Below the pieces are notes generated by a model that searched no databases, was not told the origin of the DNA, and was given only the letters and a program-made list of their open reading frames with translations. Below, piece after piece: positions 8,907 to 63,784 of a DNA stretch of 64,000 bases. The DNA lies in NCBI GenBank assembly GCA_964648765.1, contig CAZYLF010000001.1, positions 293,797 to 357,796 of the forward strand, in the 5' to 3' direction. Position 1 is the first letter of the stretch. Each line of letters begins with the position of its first letter. Source of the DNA: an uncultured Candidatus Saccharibacteria bacterium. Its GTDB lineage: Bacteria; Patescibacteriota; Minisyncoccia; Phycocordibacterales; JACOZG01. Made by a program: the position numbers and the translations under genes.

Positions 8907-10064
8907 ATGACAACTCGAGTCGAAACAATAATTGTTGGGGCGGGGATTTCGGGGTTGGCGTGTGCGAACAAGTTGCAGGAGGCGGGGAAAGATTTTTTAG
9001 TTATCACTAAAGATATTGGGGGTAGGGTCAGACCGTCGAAAGTAGATCCAAAAATAAATTTGGGTGGAGTTTATATAAATTCCGATTATTTTAATCTACT
9101 GCCATTTGTGGAAGTTATCGAACCGTTTCGGGTGCGGGATTTTTATTTTTTCGACGGGGAGAAATATCGAACAATTTTCGCTGTCAAAAATCTGAAGTTT
9201 TTACCAAAGATTTTGAAATTTATAATTTTGCTGTGGCAGTTTAGGAATCGGTTAAATATAATGAGAAAGAAGGCAGAAACGGAAGAGTTAAAAGTTCTGA
9301 TTGAAGGCGACGCTTTACTCAAGCAATATTGGGATCTCTCGGCTACAGATTTTATTAAAAAGTACGGTTTTGAGAAACTCGATTACCAATTCGGCCAGCC
9401 AACTGCCGGCACCAACGTGTTTACTACCTCCAAAGATTTAAACACTTTTTACTATCTATATTTATTTCTTACCCTGATCCGCCCGGCTTACATTGTGGAT
9501 TTAAGTCAGACTGCCAAGCGTTTATCGGTAGGGTTTGAATCAAAAATAATAATTGATACGGTTACGTCGATAGAGAAACAGAGCGACGGTAATTATCACG
9601 TCACGGCCAGTAAAAATAATTTTATTTGTAAGAACGTCGTTATTGCCGCACCCTTTCTGGATATCAAGGGTGTCTATAATCTGCCGACCCCAGCCAAGAT
9701 CACTTCGGTGTTTACATATTATGTGGTCGGGCGGCGGAAGAAGGAATATGCTAATAAAAAAGGCGTGGTGCTCCACCCAGATTTCCATGACGCTTACTTG
9801 CTGTGGAGGCAGAAGTCGGGTGGGGATTTAATTTATTCCAAAACCGGGGATCTCGACCTGAGCAAATATTATGATGACTTTGTGGTTAAGGATAAAATGT
9901 TTTGGCCAACTGGCATGCATCTCCCTGGTGAGCAGGTTATAAAGCAAAAGCTGGATGCTGGCCTCTATCTCGCCTCTGATTATAATTTCAGCTTGATGGA
10001 GGACGCCTTCATCACCGGCCTCTACGCGGCTAACAGTATCATTGGCCAGGCTCAAAAAGTTTGA
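8907..10064 (+). CDS. FAD/NAD(P)-binding oxidoreductase, amine oxidase / desaturase-like
   Basis: N-terminal Rossmann motif 'IIVGAGISGLACANKL'. Confidence 0.7.
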   Translation: MTTRVETIIVGAGISGLACANKLQEAGKDFLVITKDIGGRVRPSKVDPKINLGGVYINSDYFNLLPFVEVIEPFRVRDFYFFDGEKYRTIFAVKNLKFLPKILKFIILLWQFRNRLNIMRKKAETEELKVLIEGDALLKQYWDLSATDFIKKYGFEKLDYQFGQPTAGTNVFTTSKDLNTFYYLYLFLTLIRPAYIVDLSQTAKRLSVGFESKIIIDTVTSIEKQSDGNYHVTASKNNFICKNVVIAAPFLDIKGVYNLPTPAKITSVFTYYVVGRRKKEYANKKGVVLHPDFHDAYLLWRQKSGGDLIYSKTGDLDLSKYYDDFVVKDKMFWPTGMHLPGEQVIKQKLDAGLYLASDYNFSLMEDAFITGLYAANSIIGQAQKV

Positions 10065-53382: not shown

Positions 53383-53503
53383 AAATGCACGGCCAGATGG
53401 TCGTGCATAAAAGAGATATTGTCAGCTTGAGGTGAGGTATTTTAAGCTAACGATAAAAACTACCGCACAAGCTAATACTCCACCCGAGCAGATCCAGAAG
53501 ATC

Positions 53504-53608
53504 CTATCGCCCCCCCGGTTTTGAGTAGGCGTTCTGACCGATGATGCCAAGTGGCAACATGCCGAGGTCAGCTACTATACAAATTCCTAACCAAATCAGA
53601 CTCGACAT
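53504..53608 (-). CDS. Possible 34-aa hydrophobic peptide MSSLIWLGICIVADLGMLPLGIIGQNAYSKPGGR
   Basis: Strong RBS: GAGAAGGAG, then 6 nt, then ATG. Single TM-like helix. Below the track size cutoff. Confidence 0.3.
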   Translation of the reverse strand: MSSLIWLGICIVADLGMLPLGIIGQNAYSKPGGR

Positions 53609-53692
53609 TTTGAACTCCTTCTCAAAAAACTCACCATTTGTGCTTTTAGCTGAGAACATCTCAACCAGTTCCAATTTGAGTCTACCATGTTT

Positions 53693-54196
53693 TTAAGTAG
53701 TTTGCGGTAGACTGATGAACTTTTGAATTGTGTAGTCGATTAACTCCTTCATGTCTTCCATCCCATCACATTTGGGTGAGATGATTACAAAGTTGATCAC
53801 TTCTTTTTTTACCTCAATCTTAAGGAGACTACGTTTTTCAATCTCGTCGTTGTCGCAAGTGACCATGACGATGGTAACTTTGCTTCCGAAATGTGCCCGG
53901 AGTGTTTGGCAATACTTGATTGCTCTTGCTAGCAACCGAATGTTACAGGCGTGGACAAAAACAATAAGTTTTTTGCCGTCCTTTACTTCGGGCAGATCAA
54001 GCCACTCAAATTGCTTGAATTGTCTTTGGCGGATGTCGGTGACAAGCTCACCGCGCTCGTGGCTTTTGATCCCACTTTTGTAGCCCTTAATGAGCCCGTA
54101 AGTAAAGAATAGGGCATAAAGTTTCCGTTTACTTCCGCTCAGAATGTTTTGGAACTCCTGGCTCAAGATGAACTCATACAACTTCCAGATTCGCAT
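53693..54196 (-). CDS. Hypothetical protein. Possibly the terminal unit of the repeat-flanked array: a degenerate box + hairpin lies upstream at 54433-54506.
   Basis: RBS AAAGGAG upstream of MRIWKL. Confidence 0.5.
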   Translation of the reverse strand: MRIWKLYEFILSQEFQNILSGSKRKLYALFFTYGLIKGYKSGIKSHERGELVTDIRQRQFKQFEWLDLPEVKDGKKLIVFVHACNIRLLARAIKYCQTLRAHFGSKVTIVMVTCDNDEIEKRSLLKIEVKKEVINFVIISPKCDGMEDMKELIDYTIQKFISLPQTT

Positions 54197-54279
54197 CTTT
54201 TACTCCTTTCAGATTTCAGTATGTTATGAATGATCAACCAATTTTTACCCTACCATTAATTATTAATCTTGTAAAACGC

Positions 54280-54302
54280 AAAAAACCCCGCCAGGGCGGG
54301 GC
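54280..54302 (-). terminator. Intrinsic terminator (minus strand: CCCCGCCCTGGCGGGG + T6)
   Basis: Read directly from the sequence. Confidence 0.6.
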
Positions 54303-54432
54303 GATCAAATAGGTTAAAGCGATAGTCCAGATTGTGTGGAGAGAGCCACTCAATCTAAAAAAATCTCCTCATCCCATTCAATGCGCCCCGCTCAAGCGGG
54401 GTTTCTGTAATTATATCTTATAAATTCTTCCT

Positions 54433-54506
54433 ACGAACTCACCATCCGCCACCGGACGAATGATAAATTCGAAAAGAAGGAGAACGCACAAATGAGCACG
54501 TTCTCC
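54433..54506 (-). repeat. Array element copy 10. Degenerate box + type-B hairpin GGAGAACG(C/T)GC-AAATGA-GCACGTTCTCC.
   Basis: Shares ...CGAAAAGAAG + an AAATGA-loop hairpin with copies at 57968, 61892, 61188. Confidence 0.6.
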
Positions 54507-54522
54507 ATACTCCACAAATGGA

Positions 54523-54804
54523 TTACTTGGAATTCTCCCAACGGCACTCGATCTCGGGTGTTTCTCCCCGCTCGAGGGCGGCTGAAACTTTTGTGTGGGT
54601 GGCGATGTATATCTCGCAGTACCTGTCTTTGTCGTCGACGGCGTAGACGTCACCATTTTGACCATGCTGCAGTAATCTCACCACCTTCCCTTTGGTGTAG
54701 GGCGGCACTTCATCAGGAATTTTTTCAGACCCTACGGTGAACACCAGTAGCAACGTCAAAAAGACAACCCAGAGAAATCCATTCCACTTACTTCGATTCG
54801 ACAT
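54523..54804 (-). CDS. Small secreted protein (signal peptide + ~65-aa 2-Cys domain), paralog of 54822..55106
   Basis: 'YTKGKVVRLLQHG...RYCEIY(I/V)(A/S)THTKVS(A/L)ALERGETPEIECRW' is shared with its neighbour. Confidence 0.65.
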   Translation of the reverse strand: MSNRSKWNGFLWVVFLTLLLVFTVGSEKIPDEVPPYTKGKVVRLLQHGQNGDVYAVDDKDRYCEIYIATHTKVSAALERGETPEIECRWENSK

Positions 54805-54821
54805 CTCATTTCTCCTCTGAA

Positions 54822-55106
54822 TTACTTGGAATCATACCAACGACACTCGATTTCCGGAGTCTCTCCTCGTTCAAGAGCGAGAGAAACCTTCACATGCGTA
54901 GAAACGTATATTTCGCAGAATCTGCCTGCGCTGTCGATGGCGACGACTATCCCGTCTCTGCCGTGTTCCAGCACCCTCACTACTTTTCCTTTGGTGAGAG
55001 GGATATAGTTTCTTCGCGTTTCCGCCTCGGCACATAGAAAGCTACTACCCAGGATCAAAATAATTACAAAAATTACTTTGATAGAATTCCAAATCCGTTT
55101 CCACAT
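54822..55106 (-). CDS. Small secreted protein, tandem paralog
   Basis: Same family as 54523..54804. RBS GGAGAAGGAG. Confidence 0.65.
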   Translation of the reverse strand: MWKRIWNSIKVIFVIILILGSSFLCAEAETRRNYIPLTKGKVVRVLEHGRDGIVVAIDSAGRFCEIYVSTHVKVSLALERGETPEIECRWYDSK

Positions 55107-55143
55107 CTTATTTCTCCTTCTCCCTTACTTTTGCCTTGATTTT

Positions 55144-55247
55144 TTCCAATCAACTTACGATCACACGATCGCGAATTGAAAAAGAAGATCGAGAGTCCGC
55201 ACACTCTCGATCTTTAAAATTATCCCGTGGTCTCCCGTGCGGGGGAG
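55144..55247 (-). repeat. Array element copy 1: conserved box TTCCAATCAAC(T/C)(T/C)ACGATCACACGATCG...GAA(A/T)AAGAAG, type-A hairpin GATCGAGAGT-CCGCAC-ACTCTCGATC, and CTCCCGTGCGGGGGAG hairpin
   Basis: Near-identical to the copy at 56059-56164. Confidence 0.7.
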
Positions 55248-55251
55248 AATA

Positions 55252-55545
55252 TCAGCAGTAGTCCATCGCCTTCACAGGGTTTTGATCCCATCCCGGATAA
55301 TCACCGTCGGGCAGGAACACGCTCCACTTGACGATTGCCGCCATCTTCATGTCCCGCAAGGATTGAATCACCCCACATTCAATGGCTTGATCAGAGGCTA
55401 GGGGAAAATCCTTTTTCAGGATATCACCAAGCTTCAAGAATGCTGCCAGGCTGTGGTCGTAGCCTCCGATCACGCGAATGTCGGCGTACATCTTTCCTTC
55501 TCTGTTTCGGGGTTCATCCTTGCGCCAGTATATTCTTTTTTGCAT
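55252..55545 (-). CDS. Hypothetical 97-aa protein (MQKRIYWRKDEP...), paralog of 56889..57182
   Basis: About 45% identity to the paralog, with shared 'GGYDHSL', 'DYP.W(D/N)QNP'. RBS AGAGAGAAGGAAA. Confidence 0.6.
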   Translation of the reverse strand: MQKRIYWRKDEPRNREGKMYADIRVIGGYDHSLAAFLKLGDILKKDFPLASDQAIECGVIQSLRDMKMAAIVKWSVFLPDGDYPGWDQNPVKAMDYC

Positions 55546-55576
55546 TTTCCTTCTCTCACTTTCTTTGTCTTGAATT

Positions 55577-55612
55577 GTTTCCAATCAACTCACCATCGCT
55601 CGTGATGAGTAC
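55577..55612 (-). repeat. Array element copy 2 (degenerate box only)
   Basis: TTCCAATCAACTCACCATCGCTCGTGATGAG. Confidence 0.45.
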
Positions 55613-56029
55613 TTATTTAGTCCCAGCTAAACACCCATGAATTTTCTCACCAACTTTCAAGAAGATCCATTTTCCTGAACTTGTTGCGTCACCGTTTCCA
55701 AGATAAATTGTTCGAACGAACCATCCGTCCCGAACAACGGCGAACCCTAAGCCGTTTACTGTCCCGCTCCCAACGATGACGTCCCAGTTCCTGTTTAACA
55801 GAAACTTTCTGCTCGTCGCGTCGGTGTTGATGGGGATACCTACCCCCTTATTAATGCCTATTGTCCACATCGTTATCATGGACATCAGAAAGAAGACCAA
55901 CCCAATTGTAAGGTGAATAATCGGTCCGCCTTCAGGCCCAGTGGAAATTGTGGCTCCAGCACACACGAGATTGTAGATCGAGATTGCGCTTACGGTCAGA
56001 AATAGTAACCAATCATGAATCTTAGACAT
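55613..56029 (-). CDS. Hypothetical membrane protein (3 TM helices + C-terminal domain)
   Basis: RBS AAAAGGAGAA upstream of MSKIHDW. Confidence 0.55.
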   Translation of the reverse strand: MSKIHDWLLFLTVSAISIYNLVCAGATISTGPEGGPIIHLTIGLVFFLMSMITMWTIGINKGVGIPINTDATSRKFLLNRNWDVIVGSGTVNGLGFAVVRDGWFVRTIYLGNGDATSSGKWIFLKVGEKIHGCLAGTK

Positions 56030-56058
56030 CCTGATTCTCCTTTTGTAATTTCTTGTTT

Positions 56059-56164
56059 CTTCCAATCAACTCACGATCACACGATCGCAGGTTGAAAAAG
56101 AAGATCGAGAGTCCGCACACTCTCGATCAATGATCAATATAATCTTGTACTCCCGTGCGGGGGA
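56059..56164 (-). repeat. Array element copy 3 (box + type-A hairpin + CTCCCGTGCGGGGGAG hairpin)
   Basis: Read directly from the sequence. Confidence 0.7.
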
Positions 56165-56199
56165 GTTAATGCTGAAACGGCCGACCCCCCATATGTTGG

Positions 56200-56751
56200 C
56201 TACGAGGTGTGTGCCGCCTTTTTGCTTGCTCCAGGGAGAAACTCAGCCTGAAGCTGATTCAGCCGATTGGTTGTAGTAGTTTCTTCCCACGCCTTATTGT
56301 ACTCGCGAAGAGCAACATTCAAGTGATCGGCTAGGTCGCCACAATTCCTTCTGATCTGCAAGATTGTTTCCTCATCGCCCTGGACCGCGTCCACGATTGA
56401 TTGAGCAAAAGCCGCTTCTTCATTGGGCGCTTCATCCCACATTCTTTTTACTAGTTTGGTGAAGGCTAGTCTCCCTAGTTGCATCTGACCGCCAGTCGCT
56501 AGTGGGGAAAAAGAGAAAAGCCTCTTTTTTTCTCCAGTTGCGTCTTGGGTGTCAGTGATGACACCGAGGGCGGTGAGAACTCCTTCAAGCTTGGCTTCCA
56601 TGCCTCGCGTACACAGAATCTCGAACATCTCATCCCGCCGACTCATCCGTCGCCTTTCTTGCCAGTCGCTGACTACCTTCATCGTTATCAGTATGATGAC
56701 GATGATAGTCGCCAGCATCAAAATAGTGATAGGCATAAATTCCAGTTCCAC
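56200..56751 (-). CDS. Hypothetical protein with N-terminal TM anchor
   Basis: GTG start with GGAGA RBS. Confidence 0.5.
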   Translation of the reverse strand: MELEFMPITILMLATIIVIILITMKVVSDWQERRRMSRRDEMFEILCTRGMEAKLEGVLTALGVITDTQDATGEKKRLFSFSPLATGGQMQLGRLAFTKLVKRMWDEAPNEEAAFAQSIVDAVQGDEETILQIRRNCGDLADHLNVALREYNKAWEETTTTNRLNQLQAEFLPGASKKAAHTS

Positions 56752-56779
56752 TGTTGTCTCCTTAAAATTAGACTACCAA

Positions 56780-56884
56780 CCCTCTTCTAACGAGCTCACC
56801 ACACACGTGACGAGTTCGAAAAGAAGATCGAAGCCCGCACGCTTCGATCTTTAAAATTATCCCGTTGCCTCCCGTGCGGGGGAG
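56780..56884 (-). repeat. Array element copy 4 (degenerate box + type-A hairpin variant GATCGAAGC-CCGCAC-GCTTCGATC + CTCCCGTGCGGGGGAG)
   Basis: The stem shows compensatory changes relative to copies 1 and 3. Confidence 0.65.
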
Positions 56885-56888
56885 AATA

Positions 56889-57182
56889 TCACCAGCTGTA
56901 GTCCATCAGCGGCGGGTTCTGATTCCAGTCAGGATAATCACCCCGATCCAGGAATCCACTCCACACTGCAATGGCCATTCCACTCATGTCGACTGAGCCA
57001 CTGGTTACCCCCAACACAATGTTGAGATCATTTGCCTGCGGAAAATCCTGTTTCAGGATCTCCACAAGTTTCTGATATGCGCCCAGGCTGTGGTCGTAGC
57101 CTCCGACCACCTGTACGTTTGCGTACATTTTGCCCTCCGCATTTTTTGGTTGCTCCCTGCGCCAATAAATTCTCTTTTGCAT
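56889..57182 (-). CDS. Hypothetical 97-aa protein (MQKRIYWRREQP...), paralog of 55252..55545
   Basis: See paralog. Confidence 0.6.
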   Translation of the reverse strand: MQKRIYWRREQPKNAEGKMYANVQVVGGYDHSLGAYQKLVEILKQDFPQANDLNIVLGVTSGSVDMSGMAIAVWSGFLDRGDYPDWNQNPPLMDYSW

Positions 57183-57213
57183 TTTCCTTCTCTCTTTCTC
57201 TTTTTTGAATCGT

Positions 57214-57275
57214 TTCCAATCAACCCACGAGCACACGCTCGCCGGGTTGAATAAGAAGGGGAACCGAAGTTCCCC
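57214..57275 (-). repeat. Array element copy 5 (box + hairpin GGGGAAC-CGAA-GTTCCCC)
   Basis: Read directly from the sequence. Confidence 0.65.
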
Positions 57276-57380
57276 GTGCTGGTCAGACTTTTTCATCACC
57301 CAGAATTGGCGACCAACTCAACTTGGGCTGCATTTACACCTCATTTTACCTCTACCTTTCTCCCGGCCTGGGGAAATGTA

Positions 57381-57614
57381 TTACAGATCGCCTCGGCCCG
57401 TGAGTTCTCCCCACGAGGCACTGACGGTGAAGATAATTACCGTCAACACTGTGGCCGCTTGAGCCACATTGTGTTTGAAGTTGTCGGGGTAATCCGTCAG
57501 CCACCAAAAGACTCCCATCCCCGCAACTTCTACGGTGGCGATTACTGCCCACCGCTTGATAAATCGCTTGCTCCGTTCTTTTTGTAGCAACAGATACTTT
57601 CCCAGAAATCCCAT
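57381..57614 (-). CDS. Small membrane protein (77 aa, start MGFLGKY)
   Basis: RBS GGAGAGGAG, then 8 nt, then ATG. Confidence 0.5.
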   Translation of the reverse strand: MGFLGKYLLLQKERSKRFIKRWAVIATVEVAGMGVFWWLTDYPDNFKHNVAQAATVLTVIIFTVSASWGELTGRGDL

Positions 57615-57666
57615 CTCAAATCTCCTCTCCAGCATCTTTTGCTGGTAAAAGTTTGCAATTATTCGC

Positions 57667-57903
57667 TCACTTCTTTTTTGGTTTACTCCGTAGGCCACTG
57701 AAGACGAACTTTAGGCCGATCAGGATCACCACTAGCACCAGCAGTGATTCAAAAATTGGCCTAACCTCATGAGTTAAACTAGTCAGCGATGATTGAATCA
57801 CCCCTGGCCAAATTTTACTCACGACTGCCGCCGCCGCGATCACAACGCAACACACCAAAAACCGCTTCGGCGTGCCGATGAAAAAATTCAACCATTCTTT
57901 CAT
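57667..57903 (-). CDS. Small 2-TM membrane protein (78 aa, start MKEWLNFF)
   Basis: RBS GGAAAGGAAAAACC upstream of the ATG. Confidence 0.5.
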   Translation of the reverse strand: MKEWLNFFIGTPKRFLVCCVVIAAAAVVSKIWPGVIQSSLTSLTHEVRPIFESLLVLVVILIGLKFVFSGLRSKPKKK

Positions 57904-57925
57904 GGTTTTTCCTTTCCAATTTTCT

Positions 57926-57997
57926 TCCAATCAACTCACGATCACACGATCGTAGGCTGAATAAGAAGGGGGAGGTTGCAAATGAGCAACGTCCCCC
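57926..57997 (-). repeat. Array element copy 6 (box + type-B hairpin variant GGGGGAGGTTGC-AAATGA-GCAACGTCCCCC)
   Basis: Compensatory T:A insertion relative to copy 9. Confidence 0.7.
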
Positions 57998-58048
57998 GAT
58001 AAAGAACTATTTAAAGACACTTAATGGCTGTCTCTTTTAGCCAAAACT

Positions 58049-60529
58049 TTACTTAATGTCCACACCCGCACTTCGAAGGAGGTCACCAAGGGAACTCCCA
58101 AGTACTTCCTTCGAGTTTAAGGTTACCGGTTTCGACGCGGCTCGCCTTGAAGCCTCTGCCGCTATTCTGGCTTTTTCATTTTCAGCTTGTTGTCGCATCC
58201 TTTCTTGGGCGGCGACACGAGTTGTTTCGGCTTCAGCCAACTGCTTTGCAATTGTCTCGTCGCGAACCCGATTGAGCTCAGTCTGTTCGGCACGATATCG
58301 ATCCATAGCTTCTTGTTGACGGAGTTTTTCCGCCTTCTGGTTAACTATGTCTGCGATAAGGCTATTCCGAACAGCCACAGCCTCGTTATAACTTCGAAAC
58401 CAGACAGACTTTGTGCTGCCGTACCAGCGAGAATACTCCCATGTTCCGAAGACCATGAGATCCTCGCTGGTTTCTGGATGAGACCCAACAATGCAAGTTT
58501 GCACTGGCGGTACTGATGTCTCATCATTCATATCTACGCGGGGGAGTTCCGGCTTCTGGAACGTCGCGTACATATGTTCCACCCTCACTCGAGTTGCCTC
58601 GGGGTGGGTGGGGTCCGGCACGATTTCTTCCCGCACCTTGTGACTGTTGAAGTAAAACTCAGTGGTAGAAACCACCATGTTTTTCTCCCGGTCGAAGGTG
58701 GGGTTGATGCCCGTTTTTGTTTCCACCAACTGTGGAGCAACTTCAACTAGCCAATTCGGGTCAACCTTTGTCGCCATCCTCACCAAGTGGAGCGTAGTAA
58801 GACCACGTCTCGTTTGGATTTGGAGATCGAACGGCAGTCCAACCAACCACTCAGCACCGAACGACATACCCACGACTGATTCGCGAGCGAGTGATCGTAA
58901 TTGACCGTCACCGTTACGGTAACCGCCAAATGATTGTTTCCACAGATGATCCACCATTCCGGCGCAAATTGCCCGCAGGATATCCTCCCGCTTGCCACTT
59001 GACCTGAAATCGCGAACTTTTCCGCGGAGCGCATCAGCGAGATGTCGGCGTTTCTCTACTGCTTGAAAATAACCTTTGAGAAAAACACCTGACTCGCGGA
59101 GCTCATCCTTGCTCATGTGCCGCGCGCCATTAAATACTGCGAGCTGAGCCATGACGTCGGATGAGCGTTCTGTCGGACAAAACTTTTCCCGCCAGACATG
59201 GAACGCGTTATCTTCATAACCATCCCTCCGTATCTTGCGAGCGGTGATCTCACCTTGTTCAAGAATTGCGGCAACGTTGATAACGTCGTCAACAACTCCC
59301 AGACGCTCGGCCTCAATCACCATTCTGCCAAACTGCACCGACACCGGGAGTTTGGATACCCGGTGTCCAATTTGTGTGACTTCTCCATTTGCATCCATAC
59401 AACCAAGCGCTTTAAGTGAGCGCTTTGCTTCATGGATTTCTGCCAAGTCCGGCTGATGGAAGAATCGTAACGCTTCCATATCGATTCCGGCCTCAGCAAG
59501 TCGGAGAACAGTTTGGTCCAACCGCGTGCGGTGAATTTCCGCCTTCGGGTAAACCAAACGTTCAGCATTCGCTGGGCACCAATTAATGTAGATGCCAGGC
59601 TTGGTGCGACCGGCTCGGCCTTTGCGCTGCAGTGAATCGGTTTGTGAAATGCTCATGAGGTACAAGCCCTCAACGCCATTCACAAGTTCAACTCTTCGCT
59701 CAACGCCGCTGTCTACCACAGCATCGATGTCGTCGATCGTGACGCTTGTTTGCGCCACGTTTGTCGACACTACACACTTTGGACGCGCGTAGCTTCGGAA
59801 GCAGCGATCTTGCTCTTCCAAATCCAGCTCGCCGTGAAGCGGCAGGATTTCAGCATCGATGTCTGTGGAGGCTTTGAGTTCGGCAACCGCTTTCGCGATC
59901 TCCGATTTGCCCGGTTGGAACCAAAGAACGTTATGTCCCTCCAGAAGGAGACGACGCACGTCATTTAGTTCACTTATTCCACGTGGTTTTTCCTCCACCG
60001 GGAACTGTCTTCCGGGAACTTGGAGTATGGGAGCACCTCCAAAAAAGCTTGAGAGCTTTTCCGCTTCCAACGTGGCGCTCATCACGACCACCTTGAAGTT
60101 TGCCCCCAACTCAATTTGGTGCTTGGCCCACGCCACTAGCACCTCGATGTTCAGGTTCCACTCGTGAACCTCATCGAGTAAGAGGACACTGTGGCTGCCT
60201 GCTCCCATGAGCTCGCGCACTAGCGCTAGCCCATCGGTGCAAAACAAACACCGCGTACTTGCACTGTCTTGGCGCTCGAAGGCGGTGCGAAAGCCGACCG
60301 TCTGGCCGATCTTCTCACCGATTTCATACGCCACGCGGGAGGCAACCGTCCGGGCCGCCAAACGGCGCGGTTGGGTCACAACGATGTTGTAACCCTTTTC
60401 GAGCAAGTATTGAGGTACCTGCGTCGATTTGCCTGCGCCCGTTTCGGCGGTGATGATCACTGCTGGGTGCTCGCGCACGGCAGCAATCACCTGATCCTGG
60501 AAATCACTGATAGGTAGTCCTTGGTTCAT
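58049..60529 (-). CDS. DEAH-box (HrpA/HrpB-like) ATP-dependent helicase with C-terminal coiled-coil extension
   Basis: Walker A 'TAETGAGKST'. 'LLLDEVHEW' DExH box. 'QPRRLAAR', 'SATL' and HA2-like region. C-terminal 'EKLRQQEAMDRYRAEQTELNRVRDET...'. Start MNQGLPI with RBS GAGGAG. Confidence 0.8.
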   Translation of the reverse strand: MNQGLPISDFQDQVIAAVREHPAVIITAETGAGKSTQVPQYLLEKGYNIVVTQPRRLAARTVASRVAYEIGEKIGQTVGFRTAFERQDSASTRCLFCTDGLALVRELMGAGSHSVLLLDEVHEWNLNIEVLVAWAKHQIELGANFKVVVMSATLEAEKLSSFFGGAPILQVPGRQFPVEEKPRGISELNDVRRLLLEGHNVLWFQPGKSEIAKAVAELKASTDIDAEILPLHGELDLEEQDRCFRSYARPKCVVSTNVAQTSVTIDDIDAVVDSGVERRVELVNGVEGLYLMSISQTDSLQRKGRAGRTKPGIYINWCPANAERLVYPKAEIHRTRLDQTVLRLAEAGIDMEALRFFHQPDLAEIHEAKRSLKALGCMDANGEVTQIGHRVSKLPVSVQFGRMVIEAERLGVVDDVINVAAILEQGEITARKIRRDGYEDNAFHVWREKFCPTERSSDVMAQLAVFNGARHMSKDELRESGVFLKGYFQAVEKRRHLADALRGKVRDFRSSGKREDILRAICAGMVDHLWKQSFGGYRNGDGQLRSLARESVVGMSFGAEWLVGLPFDLQIQTRRGLTTLHLVRMATKVDPNWLVEVAPQLVETKTGINPTFDREKNMVVSTTEFYFNSHKVREEIVPDPTHPEATRVRVEHMYATFQKPELPRVDMNDETSVPPVQTCIVGSHPETSEDLMVFGTWEYSRWYGSTKSVWFRSYNEAVAVRNSLIADIVNQKAEKLRQQEAMDRYRAEQTELNRVRDETIAKQLAEAETTRVAAQERMRQQAENEKARIAAEASRRAASKPVTLNSKEVLGSSLGDLLRSAGVDIK

Positions 60530-60716
60530 TTTATCTCCTCGAGCATGGGTACTCCGACATAAAGTCGAAGCAATGACCCACCCTGCTCGGCCGCATTTAA
60601 GCGACTTCCGTTCGGCGTAATGCCTACGGCATGCGGGCAGGGTTGCCCAGGTTTTTCCATAACTCACCAACTCCTACTTAGCTGATCCCTTTCTCCTAAT
60701 TTTCTTAGGACATAAT

Positions 60717-60792
60717 TTCCAATCAACCCACGATCACACGATCGCCGGGTTGAATAAGAAGAGGGACGCAACTTGCAAGCAAGCCACGTCCC
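60717..60792 (-). repeat. Array element copy 7 (box + hairpin GGGACG...CGTCCC)
   Basis: Read directly from the sequence. Confidence 0.65.
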
Positions 60793-60948
60793 TCGTTGAT
60801 TTTTACACGCATGCACAAAGTGCACCGCAACCGGAGCCACCCGGGATTTTGTACTGTCTCCATAGTCGGAGGCCACCCGACTGGTTCAGAATCTATACTT
60901 CACTATGCACCTCTCCCTTTCTCCCGGCCTGGGAAAATTTTCACTTTT

Positions 60949-61104
60949 TCACTTGATTGGACCGCCGTTGTAGAGCGACCAAGCCTGGGGAGACACTTCC
61001 CGATGGCTGTTGATGTTCGCCAGGTGGGCGAACAATGCCACAAGTGCTACGAGACCCACGACATTCCACTGGTACTGTTTTACGACTTTCTTCCAATTCG
61101 ACAT
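60949..61104 (-). CDS. Small membrane protein (51 aa) MSNWKKVVKQYQWNVVGLVALVALFAHLANINSHREVSPQAWSLYNGGPIK
   Basis: RBS GGGAGAGGAG 6 nt upstream. Sits between two array elements. Below the track size cutoff. Confidence 0.45.
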   Translation of the reverse strand: MSNWKKVVKQYQWNVVGLVALVALFAHLANINSHREVSPQAWSLYNGGPIK

Positions 61105-61142
61105 CTCAATTCTCCTCTCCCAAACTTAATCGGGAAAAAACT

Positions 61143-61219
61143 CATTCCATTGAACCCACAAGCACACGCTTACGGATTCAATCAGAAGGGGAACGCGCAA
61201 TTTTCATCGCACGTTCCCC
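61143..61219 (-). repeat. Array element copy 8 (degenerate box + GGGGAACGCGCA...CGCACGTTCCCC hairpin)
   Basis: Read directly from the sequence. Confidence 0.55.
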
Positions 61220-61237
61220 TGGAACTTCACGAAAGAA

Positions 61238-61801
61238 CTACAACTGGTCCCCAGGGGATGCGGGGACTTCCTCTCCTTCCTCCTCTATTACCTCCACTTC
61301 ATCGAAGGAGTTGATGGTGGCCTTGCCCGAGGCTACCAGGAACGCCTCCTCAGCGGTGAACCACCCCTCCTTTTGGTCGGGGTGCCACACGTTTTTACCG
61401 AGGACTTCCTCGGCAGCCCAGGCCCGCGCGAGCCCCCTTTCGGTGGTCTCGCATGAGATTTCGAGATAGAGATTTTTTTCCCCGGGGGCATAACAACCCC
61501 CGCACCCTGACACCTTTGTAATGGTGGTATCACCTCGCCATTCCAGGGACCATTCATGGCCGCTCAGGTTGAGATGAATGGCCTTAGCCACCCCGTGGGG
61601 GGCATCATAATCTATACTGGCCTCGGCGTAAGCTCTGGCCACTGCCGAAACAAGGGCCTCTACCGAGAGGCCACCGCCTTGCATTTTTTGTTCCACCATC
61701 CAGTTGAGGTGGTGGGGGTGGTTGGCCCCCGCGATACTGGCTGCCTTACAAAAGGCGGCGATGGCTTGCGCTGCTTGAACTTTTGCGTAGATCTTCAACA
61801 T
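61238..61801 (-). CDS. Hypothetical protein (187 aa), GC-rich codon usage
   Basis: ATG with RBS GGAGATGAGAAG. Confidence 0.55.
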   Translation of the reverse strand: MLKIYAKVQAAQAIAAFCKAASIAGANHPHHLNWMVEQKMQGGGLSVEALVSAVARAYAEASIDYDAPHGVAKAIHLNLSGHEWSLEWRGDTTITKVSGCGGCYAPGEKNLYLEISCETTERGLARAWAAEEVLGKNVWHPDQKEGWFTAEEAFLVASGKATINSFDEVEVIEEEGEEVPASPGDQL

Positions 61802-61847
61802 CTTCTCATCTCCATCTCCCGATCTTTTTTATCGGATAAAAACTCAC

Positions 61848-61919
61848 TTCCAATCAACCCACGATCACGCGATCGCAGGTTGAATAAGAAAGGGGAACGT
61901 GCAAATGAGCACGTTCCCC
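61848..61919 (-). repeat. Array element copy 9 (box + perfect type-B hairpin GGGGAACGTGC-AAATGA-GCACGTTCCCC)
   Basis: Read directly from the sequence. Confidence 0.7.
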
Positions 61920-61989
61920 TGAAACTTTATGAAAGAACTATTTTTTGACAGTTTACCGAACTGCCACGGGGAGTAGCTACCTAAACCTA

Positions 61990-62184
61990 CTACTCCAGAT
62001 TCTGGGCCGAGTTGTTCCTGCGACCAGGAGACGACTTTGTGTGGGCCCGCGAGATAGCATTGACCTCACGGATGAATTCCCATCCCCACGCTTTTTTCAC
62101 GAGGGGTATTGAATTCATGACCGCGTTCACTGTGCGAGCTACCCGAGGAAAACGATAATACATATCAGAAATCGGTGTAAACAT
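61990..62184 (-). CDS. Hypothetical small protein (64 aa, MFTPISDMYYRF...)
   Basis: RBS AAGGAGA 6 nt upstream of the second ATG. The ORF track shows a longer GTG-initiated frame. Confidence 0.45.
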   Translation of the reverse strand: MFTPISDMYYRFPRVARTVNAVMNSIPLVKKAWGWEFIREVNAISRAHTKSSPGRRNNSAQNLE

Positions 62185-62585
62185 TTTCATTCTCCTTAAA
62201 TTTTCGTACTCACTTTTGAATCGCGCCCGCCCTAACATTAGGTCGGGTAAATTTGCGATCCCTCTTGTCACACCGAGTCTAGAGTAGTTTGTAGTCCTAC
62301 CTCTCTCCGTGAGACGAAGAGGAATAACAATGATTGCCTTTCGGCAGTTGTTTCCTTTTCTCTCTATTTAATTGTTAAAGTCCTTGGATTAATACGAAAA
62401 AAAGCGATTTTTAGGCTCCTCATCGTAAATGATTGAGAGAAACGCAAAAATCGCTCTTATGGCCATCTCACCCCGGCCCCGGGCTCTCTCTCAACCTATT
62501 CCATTTTTAATCTACTCCTATTATACACCCAAATGAGTTATTTGTCAAGTTAAAGTGATGAGTTTCGCATCTAAATTTTAGGGCT

Positions 62586-62612
62586 CAAAAAATGGCCCAA
62601 CTGGGCCATTTT
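62586..62612 (-). terminator. Intrinsic terminator after rpsA
   Basis: Minus strand reads AAAAATGGCCCAGTTGGGCCATTTTTT. Confidence 0.7.
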
Positions 62613-62635
62613 TCGTAAGACTATTTGCTAGTAGG

Positions 62636-63784
62636 TTAAGCTTTTTTAACGACTCCGGGGACGTTAGGAGTGAGAGTCATTTTTTGATTTTTTGGATCAA
62701 AAAAGTTGATGGTGAATGGGTAAGTTTTGCCAAGCTCTAAACTTTTGCGCAGAGCCTCCTCATTTGCAAATTCCGACACATGCACCAAGCCCGCCACGCC
62801 CTCCTCAATAGACACAAGCGCGCCATGCTTATTGTGTTTGATTACCACACCCTTCACTTCATCACCTTTTTTATACTTTTTACCAGCTTCATCCCAAGGA
62901 TTCTTTTTGAGTGCCTTAAGCGAGAGCGAGATTTTGTTATCCTTAATCTCAATAATTTTGGCTTTTACGTTTTCACCAACTTTGTAAAGTTCTTTAGGAT
63001 TTTCCACTAAAGCCCAATCAATTTCTGAAATGTGGATCAAACCTTCTAAACCTTCTTCAATTTTTACAAAAATTCCAAAGTCCACCGCGCCCGTCACTTG
63101 GCCTTCCACAGTGTCGCCCAAGGCATACTTTTCAATAATATCTTTTTTAACTTGATTGCCCACAACTTTTTCAGAGAAGATGAGTTTGCCCTCTTTAGGA
63201 TCAGCGGCAATAATGAAGACTTCAAGTGGTTGGCCTACGAACTTTACGAGTTCTACTAAAATTTTATCTTTGTCACCATCTGGGACTTTAGGATAATGTT
63301 CAGCCTTAAGTTGTGAGGCGGGCATAAAGCCGTCGAGGCCTTGCCACTCTAAAATCAAACCACCTTTATTAGCTTCTTTAACAATTAAATTGAGAGGTTC
63401 TTTATTATCAATAAACTTTTTGGCTTCACTCCAAATGATAGCTTGCTTAGCCTCTTTGAGTGAGAGTTCCATATAACCGCGTTCGCCCTCGGGGAGCACC
63501 ACTTTGGCGGTGATCTCATCGCCCTCGTTGATCTCCTTAATAATGTCACGAGCGATTAAGAATTCGCGACCGAAGATGATACCAGTGCCGAAAGGAGGCA
63601 CATCCACATAGAGAGCCATTTTGTCGCGTCCAATTACTGTGCCGGTGACGAGAGAATTGATCTCGGGAGGATTCTCCGAGTTCCGCATGATCTCATCCAT
63701 CACCGGATTTACAGGCGCCATCGCCATTTCGGCGTCGGTCACCACTTGCTCCTCTTCTTTAACCTTTTTTGTGGCTGTTACCAT
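62636..63784 (-). CDS. rpsA: 30S ribosomal protein S1 (short 4-domain form)
   Basis: Repeated S1 domains ('GTVIGRDKMALYVDV', 'GQVTGAVDFGIFVKI', 'VKGVVIKHNKHGALVSI'). No SD upstream. Confidence 0.88.
   Translation of the reverse strand: MVTATKKVKEEEQVVTDAEMAMAPVNPVMDEIMRNSENPPEINSLVTGTVIGRDKMALYVDVPPFGTGIIFGREFLIARDIIKEINEGDEITAKVVLPEGERGYMELSLKEAKQAIIWSEAKKFIDNKEPLNLIVKEANKGGLILEWQGLDGFMPASQLKAEHYPKVPDGDKDKILVELVKFVGQPLEVFIIAADPKEGKLIFSEKVVGNQVKKDIIEKYALGDTVEGQVTGAVDFGIFVKIEEGLEGLIHISEIDWALVENPKELYKVGENVKAKIIEIKDNKISLSLKALKKNPWDEAGKKYKKGDEVKGVVIKHNKHGALVSIEEGVAGLVHVSEFANEEALRKSLELGKTYPFTINFFDPKNQKMTLTPNVPGVVKKA

Follow-up and report, generated by a model that had tools for sequence, protein, structure and literature searches.

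Which kind of signal separates the genes of a small same-strand gene island in a candidate phyla radiation (CPR) bacterium? The DNA analysed here is a 64-kb stretch (the window) of a contig of at least 553 kb from an uncultured Candidatus Saccharibacteria bacterium. It carries, between rpsA and pth, an island whose genes all lie on the minus strand and whose intergenic gaps hold copies of a structured repeat; the remaining genes of the window are housekeeping genes. A sequence-only reading of the window had taken these copies for parts of a cassette array (integron-like, or a defence island) or of a tightly co-regulated regulon with a dedicated operator. The present analysis confirms that the repeat is real and supports the picture of a modular array of promoterless ORFan genes, cassette-like and all on one strand, in an island of distinct composition (GC content 0.50, compared with 0.43 for the remaining window). 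The repeat is well supported as a conserved RNA module of the gene-sense strand, which lies outside Rfam and of which no description was found; it belongs with known kinds of element, namely hairpins that process or stabilise RNA between cistrons and gene arrays flanked by hammerheads. We consider it fairly probable that the island is one operon in which this module, placed in 3′ untranslated regions (UTRs) and between cistrons, punctuates the RNA by marking points of cutting or stabilisation.

Copies of the repeated module

Read on the minus strand between 53000 and 64000, the recurring intergenic block consists of a GC hairpin, TTCTT(A/T)TTC and then CAACCYGCGATCGTGTGATCGTGRGTTGATTGGAAR. Its 17-nt core, GCGATCGTGTGATCGTG, has seven matches with up to three mismatches, where 0.06 would be expected by chance, and six of the seven are copies of the second structured element (the box), on the minus strand from 55156 to 61876. 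A covariance model (R1) was built from seven copies and run with filters off over the whole window. It detected nine copies at E ≤ 7e-6, all on the minus strand at 54425-61890, and no confident copy in the other ~55 kb of the window; repeat-family detection agreed with these copies. The GC hairpin (hp1) and a linker resembling TTCTT(A/T)TTC precede nine copies. The tenth, copy H (55578-55612, minus strand), is partial: it keeps the 3′ arm plus TTGATTGGAA, forms a weak hairpin with a different 5′ arm, then reads UUGAUUGGAA, and has no hp1 before it. The nine full copies and this partial one bear out the sequence-only reading, which had counted at least ten in the minus-strand gaps. Mean column identity among the window copies is 87%. 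The box sits 25-50 nt 5′ of start codons, and in copy D the ATG comes only ~21 nt past TTGATT.

The complete modules, all on the minus strand, begin with module A at 61847-61920 (hp1 61891-61920, box hairpin 61847-61890) and module B at 61144-61220 (hp1 61187-61220, box 61144-61186), which has compensatory changes in both stems. Module C occupies 60716-60794 (hp1 60761-60794, box 60716-60760). Module D, at 57924-57997 (hp1 57968-57997, box 57924-57967), is orthologous to single modules found downstream of the helicase in four other genomes (loci L002, L003, L020 and L025; L-numbers denote loci in which relatives of the island's genes were examined). Module E, at 57213-57275 (hp1 57258-57275, box 57213-57257), carries the compensatory change GAGC/GCUC in its inner stem, and module F, at 56782-56850 (hp1 56825-56850), has a divergent box (56782-56824). 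Modules G (56057-56128; hp1 56103-56128, box 56057-56102) and I (55143-55213; hp1 55186-55213, box 55143-55185) follow, and module J, at 54425-54506 (hp1 54479-54506, box 54425-54478), is a variant of the type seen in L020, L025 and L026.

Structure and covariation of the box

In all 25 modules examined, hp1 is followed after 0-3 nt by a bulged hairpin. Where the sequence-only reading had noted TCAACC/GGTTGA inverted arms, the hairpin is one of 13 bp extended by a closing helix of 4-7 bp (TTCTT with GGAAG), 43-54 nt in total. The loop of the 13-bp hairpin is GUGU or GCGU in every copy; the closing helix is formed by the pyrimidine linker UUCU(U) and the purine tail GGAA(G), and a bulge of 1-3 nt lies at the junction on the 5′ strand. 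The whole box hairpin measures 17-24 bp in 23 of the 25 modules (counting those of L002 and window copy I, at 14 and 16 bp; the remaining two, L074a and L074c, are longer). Good copies fold with z-scores of -3.6 to -6.

Among seven close window copies, 97.5% of the alignment cells pair and four pairs show double changes, such as GAUC/GAUC to GAGC/GCUC or AAGC/GCUU and a C-G to G-C flip. The alignment was enlarged with copies F and J and the homologues from L002, L003, L020 and L025, to 13 sequences from five genomes; 94.5% of cells pair, and compensatory changes occur in 12 of the 17 pairs. The check by alignment and covariance model that had been proposed earlier came out in favour of a conserved structure, and the module is also present in related helicase loci. 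None of 500 shuffles reached the alignment on four of five measures (including percentage paired and covariation score), and three of 500 did so for further pair types; when the partner columns were slid as a control, pairing fell to 35-49%. The copies score 60-72 bits on the gene-sense strand and 13-28 bits on the complement, and many pairs are G-U. Because G-U pairs work on the gene-sense strand only, these results argue for the box being an RNA element that acts on that strand.

Two sequence types share the one architecture: window copies A-I, L002 and L003 belong to type I, and window copy J, L020, L025 and L026 to type II. Compensatory changes keep the helix in lineages whose helicases share only 45-75% identity. 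Rfam 15 found tRNAs only in the window and no family for the module, the best match in the island being P31 (E = 0.22, below the gathering score), which agrees with the sequence-only reading, where the repeat was not recognised from any described family.

Regulation at the DNA level would make the box an operator or unusual promoter and each gene a co-regulated unit of its own, ended by an hp1 terminator. The location of the box shortly upstream of start codons, the terminator-like look of hp1 plus its T-rich tract and the high identity among the window copies would all suit such a scheme. The compensatory changes, G-U pairs included, preserve pairing and not sequence, which argues against a protein operator. 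A promoter scan found no sigma-70-like promoter and no -35/-10 hexamers beside any box, and the short TTGATT-to-ATG distance in copy D leaves no room for a -10 element plus a leader. In L003 and L025 a terminator, not a gene, comes after the box, and ribozymes stand at orthologous positions. Regulation from DNA, and with it the regulon with a dedicated operator, is thus very improbable. TTGATT as a -35 element and -10/-35 elements overlapping hp1 were considered and rejected: no partner hexamer is conserved, and copy D could not accommodate the spacing. The island contains no components that would support an N4-type hairpin promoter, nut/boxB-like antitermination or a type III toxin-antitoxin RNA, and these readings were set aside as well.

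The helicase and the module in other genomes

The exact box pattern had no match in the genome, viral and metagenome collections scanned, sets outside which the source lineage falls. Because that lineage is absent from them, relatives were reached through the helicase of the island (58049-60529, minus strand; 826 aa, DEAH/HA2 domains), a DEAH/RHA RNA helicase of the HrpA/Prp22 kind. It has thousands of relatives, the best of solved structure being Prp22/DHX8 and HrpA, and is ~29% identical to Escherichia coli HrpA. Its closest relatives are in Patescibacteria/CPR genomes, and many that are 60-75% identical come from CPR genomes and also from actinobacterial, clostridial and Bdellovibrio-like metagenome-assembled genomes (MAGs). 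At 38-56% identity (loci L006, L009, L017-L019 and L021-L044), the family spans CPR together with MAGs and genomes carrying unverified Spirillospora, Bdellovibrionales, Gammaproteobacteria and gut Clostridia labels. This distribution suggests horizontal transfer, although MAG binning errors could produce the same pattern. Phage and plasmid collections yielded only HrpA/HrpB at ~27-32% identity, which rules out a phage or plasmid gene, and blastn of the module DNA against phage and plasmid collections gave no match.

The loci of these relatives were scanned with a broader covariance model (R2), and in every one the top-scoring module match lies on the helicase strand. The module follows the helicase in L002, L003, L020 and L025 and precedes it in L054, L056, L079 and L095; L026 and L074 contain two or three copies each. 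In the two closest relatives, L002 and L003, the helicase is solitary, in unrelated neighbourhoods with no array, and a single hp1, linker and box lie 3′ of its stop codon, with CCUC/GAGG instead of UUCU/GGAA as the closing helix. Past the module, L003 and L025 have a canonical T-run terminator. As a terminator lies 3′ of the module in these two loci and in the window, the module would be transcribed within the upstream unit as part of its 3′ UTR, and hp1 is not, or not only, the terminator.

In several CPR genomes a MoxR-type AAA+ ATPase (bpMoxR) and a vWA protein precede the helicase on the same strand (L026 5251-9928, L025 5177-9908, L005 5181-7685). L026 also has a protein with P-loop and Csx3-like domains, as does L025 judging by gene order and size only. 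These neighbours suggest an RNA-directed conflict or repair system.

Hammerhead ribozymes at equivalent positions

An E-value scan of related helicase islands found type III hammerhead ribozymes. A hammerhead model (R3) was built from five hammerheads and used to scan ~100 helicase loci, giving more than 20 matches; of the 23 at E ≤ 0.01, all except three (in L008) are on the helicase strand. They include L002 9805-9859, L005 2391-2445 and L020 7803-7857, single sites at L052 3628, L079 1652, L098 721 and L026 5126, four sites in L025 (3833, 4430, 5027 and 15124), two in L074 (3919 and 4969) and, on the minus strand, L008 785, 3482 and 4302. CPR hammerheads scanned with Rfam scored 31-46 bits, all under the gathering threshold of 48.5, and several have the core CCGAUGA or UCGAUGA instead of CUGAUGA. 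A literature search on hammerheads in CPR bacteria returned nothing relevant.

Hammerheads and boxes are intermixed within single arrays in L025 (boxes at ~6945 and 13455), L026 (3917 and 7048, with one further box after the helicase cut by the locus end) and L074 (6441, 6961 and 13254). An hp1-like hairpin, often with a GUUCAA loop and with the AAAGUUCA motif before it, adjoins each hammerhead on the 5′ side, and box-type modules align with the hammerhead-type modules of L020, L025 and L026 through the AAAGUUCA 5′ flank, hp1 with its GUUCAA loop and the pyrimidine strand. Stem III of the hammerheads has a pyrimidine-rich 5′ strand and a purine-rich 3′ strand, as in the closing helix of the box. 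Their stem I loops are GUGU, GUGC or GCAU, of which GUGU is common to the box, and the bulged nucleotide of the box occupies the position of the hammerhead cleavage-site nucleotide. The geometry of the box is that of stem III (pyrimidine 5′ strand), an unpaired H17 and a stem I hairpin (P0, bulge, P2). Directly 5′ of the helicase leader there is a hammerhead in L002 and box C in the window.

We regard the box as related to the type III hammerhead but core-less, and keep it out of the family, since the catalytic core is missing and its scores are at noise level. The Rfam hammerhead models gave no match at E ≤ 5 in 53400-62700, and a hammerhead model built for this analysis and run with filters off reached at best 16.6 bits, inside a coding region, the boxes scoring 6 bits or less. 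An active or split hammerhead is rejected on these grounds, and without the core and stem II self-cleavage is not expected. After box C, the minus-strand stretch 60687-60716 reads AUUAUG-UCCUAA-GAAAA-UUAGGA-GAAAGGG and resembles a hammerhead stem II with GAAA in decayed form.

Clustered type III hammerheads are known to flank single genes or short gene blocks and were proposed to break up long transcripts into mRNAs of gene length (PMC3088659; PMC6765202); this processing of polycistronic mRNA is the sole role proposed so far for bacterial hammerheads (PMC3088659; PMC6765202). The arrays described by Perreault et al. 2011 (PMC3088659) resemble the present one in having a repeated, structured, gene-strand RNA around variable genes, and the box shares with hammerheads the 5′ flank, hp1, the pyrimidine/purine stem, the GUGU loop and the bulge at the cleavage position. 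Unlike them, it lacks the CUGAUGA...GAAA core and stem II and consists of two stacked stems, not a three-way junction.

The module might itself be catalytic, as a new minimal self-cleaving motif, or depend on the DEAH helicase to remodel the RNA for cleavage. Ribozyme-rich islands are the context that yielded pistol, hatchet and twister-sister (review PMC6765202), the box retains the UH-like bulge of the hammerhead cleavage site, and the module is always linked to a DEAH/RHA RNA helicase. A precedent for HrpA-dependent mRNA processing is given in PMC3144200, which cites Koo et al. 2004: processing of the polycistronic mRNA of the daa fimbrial operon in E. coli requires the DEAH helicase HrpA. 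The two cases share a DEAH/RHA helicase tied to endonucleolytic processing of operon mRNA into differentially stable segments; they differ in that the island helicase is only distantly similar to HrpA and is linked to the module by co-occurrence. The module has no conserved set of unpaired nucleotides for an active site, its junction varies between lineages, and it matches no ribozyme family. A catalytic or helicase-dependent module is accordingly rather improbable.

Another explanation sees in the boxes a non-functional or selfish repeat, either decayed hammerhead relics or palindromes of the kind found in repetitive extragenic palindromic (REP) elements and miniature inverted-repeat transposable elements (MITEs), which would be at most exonuclease barriers. 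REP elements and bacterial interspersed mosaic elements (BIMEs) are short imperfect extragenic palindromes in 3′ UTRs and between cistrons, where they can add stability to the mRNA upstream; REPs are scattered over the whole genome in either orientation and linked to REP-associated tyrosine transposases (RAYTs), and MITEs are recognised by terminal inverted repeats and target duplications. The copies within the genome are highly alike, intergenic blocks were duplicated along with paralogous genes (D4, D5, D7), and the hammerhead at L025 3833 is a 3′-half relic, all of which such a repeat would explain. It would not explain a helix kept by compensatory changes across lineages, two sequence types with one architecture, or an orientation that strictly follows the genes. 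The module copies, unlike REP/BIME elements, are confined to one strand and one island in the 64 kb searched, the 55 kb outside the island holding none, so that the genome-wide scatter which the sequence-only reading had named as an outcome against its array is not seen there. No transposase or RAYT-like gene was seen among the window proteins scanned with Pfam. We therefore judge a selfish repeat unlikely.

Operon signals and proposed mechanism

One strong sigma-70 promoter is present in the island (62520-62548, minus strand; TTGACA-17-TATAAT, 12 of 12 matches) and is the presumed operon promoter; promoter-like sites are overall fewer than in shuffled sequence. The functional unit hence begins further upstream than the array extent given in the sequence-only reading. 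The operon leader is 330 nt long. Some 50-150 nt 3′ of the promoter it contains an attenuator-like element (62397-62496, minus strand), with a long hairpin (62397-62458) ending in U7, an upstream GGUUGAGAGAGAG (62484-62496) that can alternatively pair with UUUCUCUCAAUC in the 5′ arm of the hairpin, and a 25-codon open reading frame (ORF), MAIRAIFAFLSIIYDEEPKNRFFSY. At the other end stands a near-perfect hairpin of 126 nt (54280-54405, minus strand) that ends in U6 and is the presumed operon terminator; at -71 kcal/mol and z = -8.4, it greatly exceeds in size the ordinary terminators found at the housekeeping genes on either side. Given one perfect promoter, a leader attenuator and one large terminal hairpin, the island is probably a single operon, with one ~8.3-kb transcript of 13 genes punctuated by modules.

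The mechanism we propose starts from this single transcript, which would run from the promoter through the leader attenuator and the 13 genes to the terminal hairpin. Each module consists of hp1 and a long hairpin with the topology of hammerhead stems III and I, the cleavage-site nucleotide being bulged and the core and stem II missing. The polycistronic RNA would be cut in or beside the long double-stranded hairpin by a protein endonuclease, the obvious candidate for ~20 bp of double-stranded RNA (dsRNA) being RNase III. Such a cut would leave hp1 as a protective 3′ end on the upstream mRNA and free the downstream cistron. Self-cleavage by the ribozymes of the sister islands, 8 nt past hp1, would give the same outcome, as would, at a minimum, an exonuclease barrier in place of protein cleavage. 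The co-encoded DEAH helicase may take part in processing, and the module family appears to travel with this horizontally spread DEAH/RHA helicase in CPR bacteria.

The classic substrate of RNase III is ~20 bp of dsRNA, as in the R sites of T7 early mRNA and the rpsO-pnp leader of E. coli. The box hairpin has the matching geometry of about two helical turns, with a small bulge that is tolerated. It resembles those intercistronic hairpins in its ~20 bp with a small internal loop or bulge and in its place directly 3′ of the stable hairpin of the upstream gene, where a cut would leave a protective 3′ hairpin. It differs from them in having no sequence relationship and in belonging to a mobile, multiplied, helicase-tied and ribozyme-linked family, and its cleavage is a prediction.

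Several points weigh against this mechanism. Cleavage, the responsible enzyme and the single operon are what we infer, and the search for copies covered the 64-kb window, so that others may exist elsewhere in the genome. The nucleotides at the junction vary between lineages (UAU/UU, UCC bulge, AUU/AU), which fits a generic dsRNA signal but provides no specific recognition determinant. Hammerhead models score the boxes no higher than noise, and the proposed homology of box and hammerhead is drawn from position, topology and the shared 5′ half, without a statistical test. Finally, hp1 plus UUCUUAUUC passes a lenient scan for intrinsic terminators (6-8 of the hp1 hairpins), so units could end there, leaving the box seldom transcribed; should hp1 be an efficient terminator, the genes would depend on unseen promoters. 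The U tract after hp1 is, however, interrupted (UUCUUAUUC), and in relatives the same hp1 precedes a hammerhead without a U tract.

A broader proposal, which we put forward tentatively and regard as possible but doubtful, is a mobile system of RNA punctuation in CPR bacteria, comprising the DEAH/RHA helicase and interchangeable signals, hammerheads or core-less hairpins, at which operon transcripts would be cut to give stable mRNAs of one gene each; the repeats would also serve as recombination handles for shuffling fast-evolving ORFan cassettes. Whatever the enzyme, these loci form a natural comparison set in which the same skeleton leads, at equivalent positions, either into a hammerhead that appears intact or into a simple hairpin of 20 bp, and this makes the function of bacterial hammerheads directly testable. 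The arrangement suggests that a signal dependent on protein can take the place of a ribozyme; if true, the core-less form would document a natural takeover of the job of a ribozyme by a protein nuclease or helicase.

Two further structured RNAs lie in the leaders, both on the minus strand. Leader element 1 (62254-62356), of the form ...GUUAUUCCUCUUC-variable hairpin-CAAGAGGGAUCGCA, is found at the 5′ end of the helicase operon in three genomes, the window, L002 (7320-7396) and L003 (~9790-9870). The helicase 5′ leader (60535-60650), directly upstream of the helicase start codon, reads GGGCARCCCUGCCC...CCGAACGGAAGUCGC...GAGCAGGGUGGGU-hairpin-ACCCAUGCUCGAGGAG; five pairs covary among four sequences, the others being L002 9863-9985, L003 9889-10000 and L013 1598-1735, and Rfam gave no match. 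An autoregulatory or riboswitch-like role of this leader is possible. In L003 the two leaders adjoin each other, and in the window genes 1-3 and modules A-C lie between them. The 44-aa ORF at 60526-60660 overlaps the helicase leader and is probably no real gene but conserved leader RNA. With the module, at least three uncatalogued RNA motifs are defined, all tied to a widely transferred CPR helicase.

Cassette variation

A comparison of strains for the presence or absence of cassettes, as had been suggested earlier, was possible with L049, a 725-bp contig of a related strain that contains a gene-8 homologue, an F-type hp1, a G-type box and gene 10. The 730-bp gene-9 cassette (~56103-56825) is missing from it, and the junction lies inside the shared TCGATCTTCTTTT linker at the border of hp1 and box. 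Upstream, an H-type box and a gene-10-like paralogue stand in place of box E and gene 7, and the L049 box shows a compensatory shortening of its stem by 1 bp. Recombination between repeated modules would explain this difference without a dedicated recombinase. As a side effect, repeats of ~75 nt would permit ORFan cassettes to be gained, lost and reordered, and repeated RNA signals may in this way double as recombination sites for the turnover of ORFan genes.

The differences in content and order uphold the cassette part of the earlier array reading; its integron-like part holds that the boxes are attC-type single-stranded DNA sites at which an integrase encoded elsewhere captures cassettes. 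Integrons are recognised by an intI tyrosine recombinase, by attI and Pc at the promoter-proximal end of the array and by RYYYAAC ... GTTRRRY core sites, and attC sites, 57-141 nt long, act as a folded bottom strand with extrahelical bases. The island resembles such an array in its promoterless genes of one orientation and mostly unknown function, each followed by a structured repeat, and in its variable content with a junction at the module. In type I copies, moreover, ATTCAAC...GTTGATT is like R″/R′, with one mismatch to GTTRRRY. These AAC/GTT ends are missing from copies B and J and from the type II relatives, and at 43-54 nt the box is shorter than attC. Its top, gene-sense strand is the one that folds well, a preference that argues against a bottom-strand DNA hairpin, and it is a near-continuous helix with one 5′-side bulge and no extrahelical bases. 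Single copies occur outside arrays, in the 3′ UTRs of the solitary helicase genes of L002 and L003, and hammerheads take equivalent positions in sister islands.

The sequence-only reading had itself noted that the window has no intI-like tyrosine recombinase. A Pfam scan of 20 ORFs of 210-424 aa across the window returned housekeeping families or no match, with Phage_integrase in none of the 20; the island proteins have no tyrosine recombinase domain in Pfam, and genes in the 6.5 kb past the promoter-proximal end of the window gave no integrase match. We see next to no chance that the boxes are attC-like sites, and recombination between modules suffices to account for the variation. The locus serves as a warning for annotation that RNA-level elements can mimic the look of an integron.

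Gene content and minor elements

The island genes, all on the minus strand, agree with the content described earlier (a DEAH/HA2 helicase, two pairs of paralogues and small hydrophobic ORFs). Gene 1 (61990-62184, 64 aa) and gene 2 (61238-61801, 187 aa) are ORFans, the latter with two matches among 1.84 billion representative proteins, and gene 3 (60949-61104, 51 aa) is hydrophobic. Downstream of the helicase, genes 6 (57667-57903, 78 aa) and 7 (57381-57614, 77 aa) are small membrane-like ORFans. Genes 8 (56889-57182) and 11 (55252-55545), of 97 aa each, are the MQKRIYW paralogues (59% identity); the sole relative found of gene 8 is that on L049, at 95% identity. Between them lie gene 9 (56200-56751, 183 aa), an ORFan, and gene 10 (55613-56029, 138 aa), a membrane-like ORFan. 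Genes 12 (54822-55106) and 13 (54523-54804) encode paralogous 2-Cys proteins with N-terminal hydrophobic segments (53% identity), and a homologue search with gene 12 returned the query alone.

Pfam, PHROGs and PADLOC gave no match for the cargo proteins except the helicase. The PADLOC defence models produced weak generic helicase matches only, and none for nine other proteins; a defence island accordingly finds no backing in these models. By tblastn, the cargo proteins were searched against the ~100 helicase loci and no cargo was in common.

The same-strand, cassette-like run of about 13 genes seen by the sequence-only reading stands, except that it had included a 167-aa gene (53693-54196, minus strand) beyond the terminal hairpin and the 44-aa ORF that is probably leader. 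The 167-aa gene lacks both a box and a family match; a small hydrophobic ORF that follows it (region 53504-54196, minus strand) is likewise past the terminator and has no box. Being beyond the operon terminator, with no box and no family match, the two are a separate unit.

Smaller repeated elements also occur on the minus strand. Genes 3, 7 and 13 have in common the ribosome-binding block GAGGAGAWWUGAGAUG (61102-61117, 57612-57627 and 54802-54817); genes 7 and 13 are the second members of two-gene cassettes. Two types of small 3′-UTR hairpin are placed between stop codons and hp1: CUCCC-CCGCAC-GGGAG after genes 8, 9 and 11 (56869-56884, 56150-56165 and 55232-55247), and UCCC-CAGGCC-GGGAGAAAGG after genes 3 and 7 (60916-60933 and 57355-57372). 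A UAGUUCUUUC / CAGAUCUUUCAG motif lies at or directly past the stop codon, 5′ of hp1 (61932-61940, 61232-61240 and 58001-58009). It is kept across genomes (L002 12347-12360, L003 12371-12385, L004 4501-4515), and a related GUUCUUUGA motif is found 3′ of the hammerheads in L025.

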